Below are positions 35,175 to 40,341 of a stretch of 64,000 bases of DNA, piece after piece. The position numbers and the translations under genes are program-made. The notes beneath the pieces are model-generated. The model was given only the letters and a program-made list of their open reading frames with translations, searched no databases and was not told where the DNA came from. The stretch's first letter is position 1. Each line of letters opens with the position of its first letter. Source of the stretch: a virus; IMG/VR virus record IMGVR_UViG_3300020204_000007, positions 1 to 64,000 of that record, one strand, 5' to 3'.

Positions 35175-36098
35175 ATGGCAATTGATTTAAATAGAATGAC
35201 ATTTGGCGCTGAACTAGAACTTGGCGATGTTGATACAAAAATTATTTTACCGCCAGGAAATAAATGGTGCGATAAAGATGGATCTATTTGTAATTCCAAC
35301 GGAACCGCAAATGATCCAAAAAAAATCTTCAATCGATATGGTGGCGAAATTCAAATGAAACCAGAAAATTCGCCAGAAGAACTTTTGCATGCAACCAAAG
35401 ATATCTATTCTTTGTTTTCTAAAAAACATTTCAATTATACCACTAATTTACATGTTCATATTAGGGTTCCTGGTCTAAAAGAAGACTTAGATGCATTGAA
35501 GAAAATTACAGAATATTTACGCAAATATGATGAAGAAATTTATGAACTTATAGACCCAAATCCATTTCCAGAACGACAATTAAAATTTTCTAATCCAGAC
35601 TTTTACAACGGAGCAGTCTCTAGGTGGCGAAGAAGAAATAAATCGCATCGCTACCGCGTTTCAGAAAAAGTATATAAATTAATGATGAATGCTAAAACTC
35701 CTCAAGAATTTTACGAAGCCCATGCGCCTAAAAATAGGTTTGGACAGCCCATGTGGCATGTAGTTGTCAGGGCCGGTGTAAATTTAAAGCAGGTGTTTGA
35801 AGACACCGAGACTATTGAATTTAGACATTTCACTATGTCTCCAGATATGAATAAAATGCTTTCGGCCTATAAATGGCCAAAATTATTAATGGAAGCTATT
35901 TTTATTACTGGAGATGCGCCAAAACAAATACTAAAGAAAAATCCAGAATTAGAATTTCAAAAATTTCATGATTATGATCACAATTTAGATAAAATTTTCA
36001 AAAAAACAAATGTTTATCACAATAAACGATCTGTTGTTAGAGAAAATTATAAAACTTTGATTGAAGAAGGACTTATTGATGAGCAATCACTCTACTAA
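35175..36098 (+). CDS. Putative amidoligase (COOH-NH2 ligase, glutamine synthetase/GCS-like fold)
   Basis: TFGAELE, DGSI, GGEI, LHVHI and TIEFRHF motifs in the order expected for Amidoligase_2-type enzymes; GGAG SD. Confidence 0.8.
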   Translation: MAIDLNRMTFGAELELGDVDTKIILPPGNKWCDKDGSICNSNGTANDPKKIFNRYGGEIQMKPENSPEELLHATKDIYSLFSKKHFNYTTNLHVHIRVPGLKEDLDALKKITEYLRKYDEEIYELIDPNPFPERQLKFSNPDFYNGAVSRWRRRNKSHRYRVSEKVYKLMMNAKTPQEFYEAHAPKNRFGQPMWHVVVRAGVNLKQVFEDTETIEFRHFTMSPDMNKMLSAYKWPKLLMEAIFITGDAPKQILKKNPELEFQKFHDYDHNLDKIFKKTNVYHNKRSVVRENYKTLIEEGLIDEQSLY

Positions 36099-36567
36099 TT
36101 CTTGGTCTAGAGCAAAAAAAATATTGTTTATTTGCACAGGCAATAAATTTAGAAGCCCATCTGCAGAACATATTTTAAAAACATTATCGCCGAATCTAGA
36201 GGTAAAATCAGCTGGAACTTCAGCTAATTCTGCCAATAATCATCTGATCGCTAAAAAAATGCGTCGTTGTTTGATTGAAATAGGCTATGAAGAGCCATCA
36301 ATTAAATCGCAACACGTTTCTAAAGAATTACTAGAATGGGCCGATCTTGTGTTTTATATGGCGCCAACTCACATAAAATATTTAACAGAAAACTACCCAG
36401 AATTTGCCATTAAATATCATGGTTTGTATACATTTGATAAAAGCAATGGCTTTGAATTAAATAGAATCGAAGATCCTGCATTTATCAAAAATCATTCAGA
36501 TGTTTTGCAAGTTACTAAATTAATTGAATTATGTGTAAAACGTGCAAAAGAAGTTTTAAACTTCTGA
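36079..36567 (+). CDS. Low-molecular-weight phosphatase family protein (LMW-PTP/ArsC fold)
   Basis: ILFICTGNKFRSPSAE (Cx5R loop), VKSAGT, WADLVFYM, IEDP; overlaps the amidoligase stop; AAGGA SD before ATG 36079. Confidence 0.85.
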   Translation: MSNHSTNSWSRAKKILFICTGNKFRSPSAEHILKTLSPNLEVKSAGTSANSANNHLIAKKMRRCLIEIGYEEPSIKSQHVSKELLEWADLVFYMAPTHIKYLTENYPEFAIKYHGLYTFDKSNGFELNRIEDPAFIKNHSDVLQVTKLIELCVKRAKEVLNF

Positions 36568-36742
36568 CCCAGAAATTTTATTCTTTTGTCGGGCGCCAGT
36601 TGGAATACTCATTCCAGGTGGCGTTGGAATTTTTGGCATTTCTATTTTTAATTTAGGTATTTTTGATTGTTTAGACATTGAAGATACTGTGCCATCTTTT
36701 AATTTATAAAGATGATCTTGAGTCTTTTCCGTTGCAGAAGAC

Positions 36743-37279
36743 TTACTTAATTTCTTGCATAGTTCTAAGATTTCTAACAGCTTCTTCAAGTTCACCTTCT
36801 GTCGCAATCCATGGCGGGACACAAACCATTTTATGTTGTATTTTACCATAATTGATTTGTTTCAAAAACGGTTTTAGCAATTCTTGTTCGTCTTGATGGC
36901 GGTTTTCTTTTAAATATGAAATATTAATAATATTTTTATCGAGCATTCTTGACAAACAGGCCATACAGGGCTGTACACTGACTAGAAATTCGTATTGATG
37001 TCGATGAGGAAATTCATTCATTTTATCAATTAAATCAATTTCTGCATGTCGAATCAAAAACTTTTTACTAGGATTTTTATCAATTGATATTTCGTTTTTT
37101 GCAAAATTATTTGATGCAAAAAAATTAATCAATTTATTTACACCAAAGGCAATGACTGAATTAGTTGAATTGTCTATTGCTATTGCAACAACTTGTACAA
37201 GAGGATCGTCACTGCGTTTTTTAAGGGCTTCAAAGAGGACTTCGGTATTAACTACTGGATAGCTTCCGTAGACAAACAT
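36743..37279 (-). CDS. dCMP deaminase-like zinc-dependent deaminase
   Basis: RSDDP..QV.A, G.N, HAE and PCMAC motifs of the cytidine/dCMP deaminase family. Confidence 0.8.
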   Translation of the reverse strand: MFVYGSYPVVNTEVLFEALKKRSDDPLVQVVAIAIDNSTNSVIAFGVNKLINFFASNNFAKNEISIDKNPSKKFLIRHAEIDLIDKMNEFPHRHQYEFLVSVQPCMACLSRMLDKNIINISYLKENRHQDEQELLKPFLKQINYGKIQHKMVCVPPWIATEGELEEAVRNLRTMQEIK

Positions 37280-38266: not shown

Positions 38267-38593
38267 TTATTCTAAATCTGCACCCATGTCTACAACACCT
38301 TCTTTTTGCAATAACGAAAGTGCTAGCACTCTTTTAGAATCTGCGAAGTTTTTTGTTTCATTAAATGCACTACGGAATGTCTGCAAAACTTCTTGTGCTG
38401 CTTTGTATTCTGAATTAGATTCCATTTCTTTCTTAGCCTTCAACACATGAGCGTTTTGCTCTGCAACAATTTGCTTCAATTTGTCAGGAGAATATGTTTT
38501 AACCATTTGCAATTCATCGTAAGAATAGTTTTTTACAAATGTTTTTTCAATATCAGAAAGATGGCTGTATTTATTTGACTTGCTTTTCTTCAT
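38267..38593 (-). CDS. Hypothetical helical protein (about 108 aa)
   Basis: GGAGG SD before MKKSK; in the operon. Confidence 0.6.
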   Translation of the reverse strand: MKKSKSNKYSHLSDIEKTFVKNYSYDELQMVKTYSPDKLKQIVAEQNAHVLKAKKEMESNSEYKAAQEVLQTFRSAFNETKNFADSKRVLALSLLQKEGVVDMGADLE

Positions 38594-38594
38594 A

Positions 38595-39449
38595 TTAAGC
38601 CTCCACAAACAATAATTGTTTATTTTTTATATACGCGGTTTTTTCTTTTTGAGTAAAATGATGTTGCAAAAATTTATGATCAAATTGACAACTGTCAATT
38701 AAATTCCAAAAATCTTTGTCTGAAAAAATTTCTGGTTTTTTTAGGGCTAAAAATTCATTGATATCATGGCCAATAACATAAGAACCCTTGTGCAAAATTT
38801 TTGGAACTTTACACAGGCAACTTTCTACTTGACCAATTGGCGCAGACCATTTTTTAGATAACTCCCATCCAAACTCCTCCCATTTTGTTAATATTTTTCG
38901 GTCATACTTTTGGTCAATTCCATATAAATATCTGAGTCCAAAAATTGGACCGGTGTTTTTATTTGGGTCTGAATTTTCAATTCCTAATCCATGAATACGC
39001 AAATTATTGTATCCGAGTGTTTGATCTAAAACTTCGCAGATTTTATAACAAGCCCAATCACCAAAGTACGGAATCGTTTTAAAAAGCTCTCTTCCGCTAT
39101 CAAAATTATGTTCTTTTGTAACTAGCAGCGGTTTAATTTCCAACCATCTCTGATAGGCTTTTTGAAAGTTTTCTAAACGTCGTACTTGCGGTGTTCGCCC
39201 TCGTTCCATACCAAATTTAGTAATTTTATTAAAACAGACAGTTTCTGTACTATCAGAAACCATCCGCATGAAATGAATCATGCTTTCTATAGAATAGTAG
39301 TAGACATACATGAAAACGGCAGTCTCTGGATCAAACTTTTCATGTTGAATAATTTTTTGTAAAAACGGATAAACAGGGTCAACATCTTTGGTTTGAATCA
39401 ATGCAAGACTGGCTTTTTCAAAATCACCATAATTAAATAGCTGATGCAT
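38595..39449 (-). CDS. Amino acid:DNA transferase (aGPT-Pplase2 / ADDT family, HhH-glycosylase fold)
   Basis: DVDPVY, Y..YY, G.ERGR, IPYFGDWACYKI.E, GP..GL and QVESCLCK..KGSYVIGHDINE follow the motif series I recall for this family. Confidence 0.8.
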   Translation of the reverse strand: MHQLFNYGDFEKASLALIQTKDVDPVYPFLQKIIQHEKFDPETAVFMYVYYYSIESMIHFMRMVSDSTETVCFNKITKFGMERGRTPQVRRLENFQKAYQRWLEIKPLLVTKEHNFDSGRELFKTIPYFGDWACYKICEVLDQTLGYNNLRIHGLGIENSDPNKNTGPIFGLRYLYGIDQKYDRKILTKWEEFGWELSKKWSAPIGQVESCLCKVPKILHKGSYVIGHDINEFLALKKPEIFSDKDFWNLIDSCQFDHKFLQHHFTQKEKTAYIKNKQLLFVEA

Positions 39450-40341
39450 AGACTTGCGCCTGAATTGCGTCTGCAATTTCTTTTATATAGGAAGGTGCGT
39501 GTCGTAATCCGTTTGCAGATTTAGGCGTGATGTACATTTGATTACTTTCTTGTATAAAGGCATATGGAAATTCGGAAACATATGCGGGACGCCAACCAAC
39601 TGTAGGAGATCCCTCTGGTTGAATATCTACTTGTCCGTCTGTAACTTTTTTAATATGAGAAATAATATTTTCCACTTTACTGCCGATTTCTAAATCTTTT
39701 TGATTTTTTTGATAAATAAAATGTGTTCCAAGGTAATAATCATCAGTCATTGGTCGAGGATACAAATATGCATTAATAAAACGACCTTCTTTAGCATTCA
39801 GACACATGCGCGGGTATTTATCAAACACTTCTCCAGAAACTTTGCATGGAACAGACCATCCCCATCTATAATCAGTGGGACGATGTTTATGGAATCCATG
39901 AGCATGGACAATTAAAGCATCTGATTGGCAATAACCAGGTCCAAATAATGAAAAGAAAAAATTTCTAGAAAAATTAACAAATTTTTGTACATTTACATGC
40001 ATAGAATGTTTATTAAGAATTTTAATATTGCCAATACATTCTTCAACTTTTAGATCTTTTGAATTATTTCCATGCGGGATACTTTTTTGTGTAAATCCAT
40101 ATGGTACAGATTCTGCAAATAATTGTATTGGCATAGTTTCATCGGGGGCAAATTTTTTTATCCAAAGATTATAATTTAAATTATCAAATGAATCTCCAGA
40201 TGGATAAATGCAACCAGTGCTTGCCTTCCAAGCTGATGGATGATCTTCGTCATGCCATGTAAAATCAATTTTTCTTTCTGTTAGTTCCCATGCAAGCAGG
40301 CTGCCAATTAATCCAAAGCCTTTAATATGTACTTTAAGCAT
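39433..40341 (-). CDS. FAD-dependent oxidoreductase (DAO / glycine-oxidase fold), candidate flavin lyase for DNA modification
   Basis: IKGFGLIGSLLAWEL Rossmann motif; SAWKASTGCIYP; VGWRP; NGLRHAP; overlaps the transferase gene. Confidence 0.8.
   Translation of the reverse strand: MLKVHIKGFGLIGSLLAWELTERKIDFTWHDEDHPSAWKASTGCIYPSGDSFDNLNYNLWIKKFAPDETMPIQLFAESVPYGFTQKSIPHGNNSKDLKVEECIGNIKILNKHSMHVNVQKFVNFSRNFFFSLFGPGYCQSDALIVHAHGFHKHRPTDYRWGWSVPCKVSGEVFDKYPRMCLNAKEGRFINAYLYPRPMTDDYYLGTHFIYQKNQKDLEIGSKVENIISHIKKVTDGQVDIQPEGSPTVGWRPAYVSEFPYAFIQESNQMYITPKSANGLRHAPSYIKEIADAIQAQVYASAI

Follow-up and report, generated by a model that had tools for sequence, protein, structure and literature searches.

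The locus described here lies at 35-40 kb in a 64,000-nucleotide stretch of viral DNA (hereafter the window), positions 1 to 64,000 of the IMG/VR virus record IMGVR_UViG_3300020204_000007. It is proposed that this locus directs a post-replicative thymidine hypermodification of the type known from phage PaMx11 with an altered last step, and that the predicted product is N-acyl-5-aminomethyl-deoxyuridine (N-acyl-5-aminomethyl-dU), an undescribed base; we place the probability of this reading at about 0.6. The gp46-gp50 pathway of PaMx11 yields 5-acetylaminomethyl-dU (PMC8989533, PMC11472151). In the source phage, genes for a predicted amino acid:DNA transferase (AADT), an oxidase dependent on flavin adenine dinucleotide (FAD), a P-loop kinase and a deaminase lie in one minus-strand operon, and genes for an amidoligase and a low-molecular-weight (LMW) phosphatase occupy the place where relatives carry an acetyltransferase, so that an undescribed DNA base is the probable outcome. 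The evidence computed for this locus comprises folds, catalytic residues, synteny and gene fusions; the first three support the PaMx11-type route to 5-aminomethyl-dU that an earlier first-pass annotation of the window had drawn.

The exchange of the acetyltransferase is seen in the syntenic relatives. In the related loci L013-L016 the transferases are 41-48% identical to that of the source phage and the order oxidase, transferase, two small genes, kinase, deaminase is exactly kept; a convergent gene for a Gcn5-related N-acetyltransferase (GNAT) of 176-184 amino acids faces the end of the operon, and its product is a homologue of gp48, the acetyltransferase of PaMx11 (E 2e-9). The operon order together with this gp48-like GNAT implies that L013-L016 carry the full PaMx11 enzyme set. 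At that same spot, the source phage and its relative L018 (78%) have the amidoligase and the LMW phosphatase (family LMWPc) instead. The gene order of the locus is found again in relatives whose proteins are 38-78% identical, and by this comparison the predicted arrangement is not a matter of chance. A search of the whole 169-kb genome for GNAT (Acetyltransf_1) and Radical_SAM gave zero matches; the absence of GNAT and radical SAM genes reported by the first-pass annotation thus holds in the window and in the genome as a whole.

Judged from gene content, the exchange of a GNAT for an amidoligase and a phosphatase recurs in two PaMx11-like lineages, represented by phage Simon and the metagenomic contig L032. 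The transferase of phage Simon is 40% identical to gp46 and its oxidase 42% identical to gp47; these two genes are followed by those for an amidoligase, a phosphatase, a kinase, an HMUDK_hel protein and a thymidylate-synthase homologue. L032 carries gp50-, gp47-, gp46- and gp49-like genes and then an amidoligase and a phosphatase. No gp48-like gene is present in either within the stretch examined. The position of the GNAT in the relatives and the recurrent exchange lend strong comparative support to the proposal that the amidoligase would acylate the 5-aminomethyl amine.

The family assignment of the amidoligase draws on its homologues and its motifs. The family comprises 300 representatives after 50% clustering, 46 of which were sampled for Pfam; 30 of these 46 match Amidoligase_2 (best E 3.7e-13), and all 30 language-model (Atlas) neighbours of the window protein are Amidoligase_2 clusters (0.96-0.97). 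Its conserved residues are E13, E15, E58, H93, H95, R199 and E215-F-R217, among which E13, E15, H93, H95, E215, F216 and R217 vary little or not at all in the family and are all present in the window amidoligase; the E-x-E, H-x-H and E-F-R motifs that they form are those that we take to be defining for Amidoligase_2. The family profile found no relative in the PDB. The phosphatase matches LMWPc (PF01451) at 62 bits against a cut-off of 23.2, and it has the catalytic loop CTGNKFRS (C-x5-R-S) at residue 25 and the DP acid at residue 138. The two genes are adjacent in L018, phage Simon, L030, L031 and L032, and they are fused in the proteins P0061, P0076, P0085, P0098 and P0065. The amidoligase fusion proteins (P0061, P0063, P0065, P0073, P0076, P0085, P0098 and P0135) comprise fusions to LMWPc (four cases), to LMWPc and a TET-associated glycosyltransferase, to that glycosyltransferase alone, to a glutamine amidotransferase (GATase) and to a P-loop kinase. 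Because amidoligase and phosphatase are fused in homologues, the phosphatase is taken to be an integral and obligate partner of the ligase. Lee et al. (PMC8989533) reported that amidoligases co-occur with thymidine-hypermodification clusters and assigned no role to them, and we found no paper that gives an amidoligase a role in such clusters.

The same pair is also found in a different chemical setting. In L031 (870-6460) it is followed by QueC, FolE (GTP cyclohydrolase I), QueF, QueD and QueE, which make up the pathway to 7-aminomethyl-7-deazaguanine (preQ1), and in Vibrio phage 2.275.O (L026:7866-13074) an amidoligase homologue adjoins 7-deazaguanine genes. This gene content hints at an acylated preQ1 base in the DNA of phages with clusters of these types. 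The gp47-type oxidase and QueF have a common outcome, an exocyclic aminomethyl group on a base, and it is this common outcome, taken with the exchange and the fusions, that leads us to propose acylation of an aminomethyl base.

By its predicted fold and its residues, the transferase belongs to the PaMx11 gp46 family, in agreement with the first-pass call. Its AlphaFold model, with a predicted local distance difference test score (pLDDT) of 92.6, matches gp46 (8z2m) with Z 16.6 and a root-mean-square deviation of 3.0 over 231 of 284 residues; the second-best fold, that of the helix-hairpin-helix DNA glycosylases, reaches Z 8.4. The mismatch with the AADT fold that the first pass had named as a refutation thus did not occur. 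Twelve of 16 close homologues match Pfam ADDT (best E 8.8e-7), the family profile detects the AADT chains 25qc (2e-5) and 8z2m (1e-4) in the PDB, and the protein itself matches phrog_6364, a PHROG that includes gp46, at 2.7e-9. A protein of Gordonia phage Wooper that is annotated as aGPT-Pplase2 and is itself a strong ADDT match shows 26% identity to the transferase (E 4e-11). In gp46, Cys247 is the nucleophile, Glu243 and Thr244 are metal ligands contacting thymine O4, and glycine is bound by Asp24, Trp146 and Lys150; a phosphate pocket has also been described (Wen et al., PMC11472151). The catalytic, metal, glycine-binding and phosphate-pocket residues of that study are kept across the transferase family, in which D24, E92, W146, K150, E243, C247, D262 and E265 of gp46 are all retained. 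In the window protein Thr244 is replaced by Ser, Tyr47 by Phe and Lys261 by His.

The oxidase carries an N-terminal GxGxxG motif (GFGLIG, residues 8-13), and its AlphaFold model (pLDDT 90.6) has the complete D-amino-acid oxidase (DAAO) fold of the GR2 type, with two domains and FAD. The model gives Z 21.7 to DAAO and 19-20 to the glycine oxidase ThiO, MnmC, CmiS2 and the iminodiacetate oxidase IdaA; over DAAO, glycine oxidase, MnmC and sarcosine oxidase the range is 18-21.7, with 278-285 of 302 residues matched. These enzymes act oxidatively on the C-N bond of amino-acid substrates, and glycine oxidase, MnmC, CmiS2 and IdaA cleave C-N bonds of glycine-type or N-carboxymethyl amines. The arginine of a G-x-R-P motif, kept in all 21 of 21 homologues, corresponds to R242 of gp47, the proposed carboxylate binder; equivalents of gp47 Trp51 and Arg242 are kept in the oxidase family, and the positions of Tyr180, Gln182 and Lys268, which belong with Trp51 to the base cage of gp47, are not reliably alignable. 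The protein has no match in Pfam or PHROG, and phmmer and the family profile yielded nothing meaningful from PDB sequences. The gp47 structures (8z2o, 8z79) are not among the 50 fold matches listed for the oxidase, which is not proof that the folds differ. Since the two proteins are not alignable past the Rossmann part, we regard the oxidase as a functional analogue of gp47 within the superfamily rather than as an established orthologue. In Gordonia and Rhodococcus phages, cassettes of the composition ParB-TET/JBP-transferase-kinase have an oxidase homologue after the transferase; further homologues adjoin the transferase in a 327-kb phage and, next to Tet_JBP, in a metagenome-assembled genome (MAG) contig; the pairing is kept in L013-L018, in L037 and in the actinophages Wooper and Tonitrus. 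Fold and synteny make the enzyme a candidate for cleaving an amino-acid adduct on thymine to leave 5-aminomethyl-dU. In the NCBI MAG contig PVMK01000187 (L017:7094-10027), genes for Tet_JBP, the transferase, a 77-amino-acid protein and a DAAO-type oxidase stand in a row, and an animal-haem-peroxidase domain and an HNH protein are encoded on it too.

The first-pass annotation placed the kinase for 5-hydroxymethyl-dU (5-hmdU) in DNA outside the window, whereas our analysis finds the best candidate inside it. The P-loop protein of the operon has the Walker A motif GAGATGKTT at residues 10-18, invariant in eight homologues. Its single PHROG match, a weak one, is to phrog_800 (E 5.5e-4), which is labelled 'terminase small subunit' and which holds the biochemically validated PaMx11 gp49 kinase (5e-30) together with the DNA kinase of Gordonia phage Wooper. 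A profile comparison by hhalign gave E 1.3e-3 at a probability of 19%, with an SGTD motif in common, and the language-model (Atlas) neighbours are viral clusters with Ploopntkinase3, HMUDK_HMUD1 or HMUD2 (0.94-0.95). BLASTP gave E 0.015 against gp49, and against the actinophage kinases it found similarity limited to the P-loop; PF18751 (Ploopntkinase3) has no match in the genome at E <= 1. The comparison with Ploopntkinase families suggested by the first pass therefore came out divided, with nothing from Pfam and positive signals from phrog_800 and from the HMUDK and Ploopntkinase3 neighbours. The PHROG, profile and language-model evidence indicates that the kinase probably lies within the window and that the P-loop protein is probably a divergent 5-hmdU DNA kinase. 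Sequence comparison does not establish that this kinase and the oxidase belong to the PaMx11 families.

A counterpart of PaMx11 gp50, an HMUDK_hel protein (87 bits), is encoded outside the window at 79776-80699. Its gene is overlapped by that of a 2-oxoglutarate (2OG)-Fe(II) oxygenase, and the pair (79205-80699; L006:15205-16699) lies between the gene for the large terminase and an open reading frame (ORF) of 235 amino acids that matches no Pfam family. Searches for related loci with HMUDK_hel and the thymidylate-synthase homologue returned close relatives only. As an observation on annotation, PaMx11 gp49 (L012:5354-5923), a validated 5-hmdU DNA kinase, carries the RefSeq name 'terminase small subunit'; with gp49 and phrog_800 both so labelled, annotations of such kinases will propagate as terminases.

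In the thymidylate-synthase family, Asn at the specificity position (Asn177 of Escherichia coli ThyA) selects deoxyuridine monophosphate (dUMP) and Asp selects deoxycytidine monophosphate (dCMP). The only thymidylate-synthase homologue (PF00303) in the source genome, at 149162-149869 (L001:1306-2013), keeps the catalytic Cys and reads LGVPYD, with Asp at the specificity position; the same Asp is common to its best solved matches, the T4 gp42 dCMP hydroxymethylase and MilA. Its best phage match adjoins glucosyltransferases in a T4-like Acinetobacter phage. Asn occupies this position in PaMx11 gp51, in the enzyme of phage Simon and in G003, a more distant transferase-bearing relative. The dUMP hydroxymethylase that the first pass expected elsewhere was not borne out by the genome search, in which the sole PF00303 match was of the dCMP type; this Asp points to a pool of hydroxymethyl- or methyl-cytosine nucleotides. 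ThyX is absent from the genome, and no thymidylate-synthase gene is present in the fragment searched of the GNAT-type relative. A gene of Agathobaculum phage AB434P2 (L027:2899-3561) annotated as 'deoxyuridylate hydroxymethyltransferase' also has Asp at the specificity position, and its annotation may therefore name the wrong substrate.

Two further enzymes bear on the supply of 5-hmdU. The operon deaminase scores 26.9 bits for dCMP_cyt_deam_1, where the cut-off is 25, its HAE and PCMAC zinc motifs are intact, and among solved proteins human dCMP deaminase is its best relative (E 2e-4); it is kept in L013, L014 and L018, and a more canonical paralogue (46 bits) is encoded at 124040-124552. The oxygenase at 79205-79858 matches 2OG-FeII_Oxy_3 at 1.8e-17, with prolyl 4-hydroxylases as its best solved relatives. 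It was also considered as a TET/JBP thymine hydroxylase (PF12851) and rejected as such, scoring 19.7 bits against a cut-off of 34.9. The simplest route to 5-hmdU, which we hold tentatively and at somewhat below even odds, would convert dCMP to 5-hydroxymethyl-dCMP (5-hm-dCMP) by the Asp-type enzyme and this to 5-hm-dUMP by the operon deaminase; alternatively, thymine in DNA may be hydroxylated by the 79-kb oxygenase. Elsewhere in the genome, at 132598-135330 (L009:8598-11330), overlapping genes encode a dUTPase, a thymidylate-kinase-like protein, a protein of 287 amino acids without a family match and an AAA_28 P-loop protein. This run is possibly the nucleotide-pool branch of the pathway, and its dUTPase could be, by analogy, a dTTPase/dUTPase as in Acinetobacter phage SH-Ab 15599.

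In the pathway that we propose, the P-loop kinase would phosphorylate 5-hmdU in the phage DNA to 5-phosphomethyl-dU, and HMUDK_hel may assist it. The conserved cysteine of the transferase would attack C6, with expulsion of the phosphate and addition of an amino acid, by analogy most likely glycine. The FAD oxidase would oxidise the C-N bond of this adduct and release the carbon skeleton, leaving 5-aminomethyl-dU, to whose amine the amidoligase, rather than a GNAT, would join a carboxylate through an acyl-phosphate intermediate. The phosphatase would take phosphate off the donor or the product, or off unreacted 5-phosphomethyl-dU. We infer the identity of the amino acid, the nature of the acyl group, the role of the phosphatase and the order of the last two steps. 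A wider reading, possible and on balance unlikely, is that the pair is a portable module acylating exocyclic aminomethyl groups on bases, 5-aminomethyl-uracil here, in phage Simon and in L032, and preQ1 in other phages, and that it is combined here with an undescribed 5-hmdU route through a dCMP hydroxymethylase and a dedicated 5-hm-dCMP deaminase.

Several observations weigh against the proposed pathway. The transferase scores 18.3 bits against Pfam ADDT (PF18724), below the curated cut-off of 26.2, so that the profile check suggested in the first pass failed for the protein's own score and succeeded for its homologues; the amidoligase likewise scores 17.3 bits against Amidoligase_2 (PF12224), below the curated cut-off of 22. 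The hhalign match of the oxidase to gp47 covers 78 N-terminal (Rossmann) columns only, at a probability of 71%, and the protein falls outside gp47's PHROG (phrog_16743). The P-loop protein has no Pfam match at E <= 0.01. The 5-hmdU substrate is unaccounted for, because the genome has no dUMP-type hydroxymethylase and no convincing TET/JBP enzyme, and the role proposed for the phosphatase is without precedent. Finally, amidoligase homologues also occur with GATase, either fused or adjacent, which fits amidation of a carboxylate and not acylation of an amine, and on the P0050 contig an amidoligase occurs with a transferase and a pyridoxal phosphate (PLP) enzyme and no oxidase.

These last two points, GATase being a supplier of ammonia, would favour a scheme in which the amidoligase amidates or extends the carboxylate of the adduct, for example N-alpha-glycinyl-thymine, with ammonia or another amine to give an amino-acid amide or a dipeptide-like adduct, the oxidase serving a different fraction or step. 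The reaction of Amidoligase_2 enzymes couples an amine with a carboxylate, and DNA could supply either group. However, three lineages have the pair together with a gp47-type oxidase and in place of a gp48-type GNAT, whose substrate is a free amine; the preQ1 context likewise provides an amine and not a carboxylate, and no GATase was noticed in the neighbourhood of the locus, the only part of the genome considered in this respect. We consider this scheme improbable. It is more doubtful still that the pathway ends at free 5-aminomethyl-dU and that the pair, a chance neighbour, has a different function, for instance in supplying metabolites or in taking over the host. The pair does lie on the opposite strand, possibly as its own transcription unit, and its link to DNA chemistry is contextual, none being direct; yet it recurs, in five or more unrelated contexts, within or next to clusters for base modification, an amidoligase is fused to a DNA-base glycosyltransferase, and the pair sits exactly at the GNAT position of the relatives.

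The least probable of the readings considered is that cytosine is modified, with the Asp-type enzyme making 5-hm-dCMP, 5-hydroxymethyl-cytosine entering the DNA, and the kinase, transferase and oxidase acting on that base. It would explain why the sole thymidylate-synthase homologue is of the Asp type, as are the T4 dCMP hydroxymethylase and MilA, and why neither a dUMP hydroxymethylase nor a clear TET/JBP enzyme is in the genome, and it would suit the glucosyltransferases beside the best phage match of that homologue in a T4-like phage. Against it, the Glu and Thr/Ser pair that in gp46 holds the metal at thymine O4 is present in the transferase, and the more distant relative G003 is of the Asn type; homologous transferases adjoin TET/JBP enzymes, which are reported to be T-dioxygenases in AADT- and kinase-linked phage clusters (PMC13229309), and a dedicated deaminase in the operon suits conversion to the uracil series. 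Acylation of 5-aminomethyl-dU by the amidoligase remains the reading that we prefer.

The source phage is uncultured; its genome (169,059 bp, 36% G+C, estimated complete) also codes for a DnaE-type polymerase, a RecA-like protein, SbcCD, a chaperonin and ribonucleotide reductase. The sole cultured phage with a detectably related large terminase is Myxococcus phage Mx1 (32% identity), and a megablast search of 35000-41000 against GenBank phages gave zero matches. The minus-strand unit runs from 40834 to 36556 and encodes, in this order, a 158-amino-acid protein, the oxidase, the transferase, proteins of 113 and 125 amino acids, the P-loop protein, the deaminase and a 97-amino-acid ORF (Table 1); the amidoligase and phosphatase genes overlap one another on the plus strand and converge onto this unit. 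The ORFs of the amidoligase, phosphatase, deaminase, P-loop protein and oxidase are present where the first-pass annotation had put them, as is the transferase ORF at 38595-39476 on the minus strand, of which the database form (284 amino acids) starts at an ATG at 39449 and shares 17 bases with the end of the oxidase gene. The functions given to these genes also stood up to closer analysis: the FAD-oxidoreductase call by the DAAO fold of the model and the GxGxxG motif, the LMW-phosphatase call by the family match, loop and acid, the dCMP-deaminase-like call by a match above the cut-off with intact zinc motifs, and the amidoligase call, despite the low score of the protein itself, by its homologues and motifs. 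The 158-amino-acid protein, which matches nothing in Pfam or PHROG, may be the product of the first gene of the unit. The 113-amino-acid protein has a single weak Pfam match below the cut-off, treated as noise, and the 97-amino-acid ORF likewise follows the deaminase gene in L018 and L014. A scan of the locus for promoters and terminators found sites no more frequent than in shuffled sequence.

Table 1. Genes of the proposed hypermodification locus, with positions in the window and the basis of each assignment.
Feature	Position	Strand	Basis
Conserved 158-amino-acid protein directly upstream of the oxidase	40358..40834	-	Same position in L013, L014, L018, E 1e-18 to 4e-70
FAD-dependent amine oxidase of DAAO / glycine oxidase / MnmC fold; candidate oxidase-lyase	39433..40341	-	Fold, motif, synteny
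Amino acid:DNA transferase (AADT, formerly aGPT-Pplase2)	38595..39449	-	Fold, catalytic residues, phrog_6364
Conserved 113-amino-acid protein in operon	38267..38608	-	Same position in L013, L014, L018, E 1e-25 to 8e-66
Conserved 125-amino-acid protein, two C-terminal CxxC pairs, zinc-ribbon-like	37883..38260	-	L013, L014, L018, E 6e-18 to 9e-51
P-loop kinase, divergent candidate 5-hmdU DNA kinase	37252..37890	-	Walker A, phrog_800, language-model neighbours
Divergent cytidine/dCMP-deaminase-family enzyme	36743..37279	-	dCMP_cyt_deam_1, HAE and PCMAC motifs
Small conserved ORF (97 amino acids), last of the minus-strand operon	36556..36849	-	tblastn E 1e-32 (L018), 1e-11 (L014)
Low-molecular-weight phosphatase, amidoligase partner	36061..36567	+	LMWPc E 9e-17
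Amidoligase_2-family ATP-dependent carboxylate-amine ligase, proposed last tailoring enzyme	35175..36098	+	Homologues, motifs, GNAT position

Apart from the thymidine locus, the genome encodes at 115262-115906 (L008:11262-11906) a protein of the Mom family (Pfam Mom, E 3e-32), a homology that suggests a separate adenine modification in the source phage.

Thymidine hypermodifications shield phage DNA from nucleases, those of restriction included, and have been a source of new enzymes for DNA chemistry. What is new here is the recurrent exchange of a GNAT for an amidoligase and a phosphatase, the fusions, the aminomethyl logic held in common with the preQ1 clusters and the Asp-type hydroxymethylase. 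The locus and its relatives turn the remark of Lee et al. (PMC8989533) into a concrete hypothesis, namely that the pair stands in for the acetyltransferase that caps 5-aminomethyl-dU. If this is true, the source phage would offer a base new to DNA, an amide ligase directed at DNA and, possibly, a novel route to 5-hmdUMP; if the pair is indeed a portable module, a new class of amide-linked hypermodified bases would follow.

Compared with known systems, the source phage is closest in logic to PaMx11. Both have a transferase of the gp46 fold with its catalytic residues, an adjacent short FAD amine oxidase of about 300 amino acids, a P-loop kinase (in the source phage one that weakly matches the PHROG of gp49), a gp50-like HMUDK_hel and a gene of the dCMP-deaminase family. 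Unlike PaMx11, the source phage has an amidoligase and an LMW phosphatase instead of an acetyltransferase, an oxidase alignable to gp47 only in the Rossmann part, a thymidylate-synthase homologue with Asp and not Asn, pathway genes split between 35-40 kb and 79-80 kb, and a genome of 169 kb with a DnaE-type polymerase. Phage Simon, a sewage isolate whose GenBank record (PQ683277, L025:6864-14543) is unannotated and marked UNVERIFIED, holds a complete PaMx11-like cluster. Simon and L032 resemble the source phage in their predicted transferase, FAD oxidase, kinase, HMUDK_hel, amidoligase and LMW phosphatase; for the first three of these enzymes, however, sequence places Simon and L032 near PaMx11 (34-51% identity) and not near the source phage, their genes form a single co-directional cluster and not split loci, and the 349-amino-acid thymidylate-synthase homologue of Simon is of the Asn type. 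In the actinophage cassettes of Gordonia and Rhodococcus, a 'hypothetical protein' is an oxidase homologue (E 1e-19 to 1e-24) and the transferase is homologous (E 4e-11); unlike in the source phage, 5-hmU is made on DNA by a TET/JBP dioxygenase with ParB and the kinase is a clear Ploopntkinase3, and neither an amidoligase nor a GNAT was seen in the stretches examined.

For two of the individual enzymes the nearest precedents lie outside these clusters. T4 gp42 is the best solved match of the thymidylate-synthase homologue (E 7e-17, about 30% identity), with the catalytic Cys and the specificity Asp in common; unlike the logic of T4, the source enzyme would feed a uracil pathway by way of the deaminase. 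The oxidase domain of E. coli MnmC, which converts 5-carboxymethylaminomethyluridine (cmnm5U) to 5-aminomethyluridine (nm5U) in tRNA, differs from the phage oxidase in its tRNA substrate, its fusion to a methyltransferase and a sequence similarity below detection, but the two have their fold in common (Z 20.1), and the chemistry of MnmC is the one proposed here, in which FAD serves to remove a glycine-derived carboxymethyl group and 5-aminomethyl-uracil is left.

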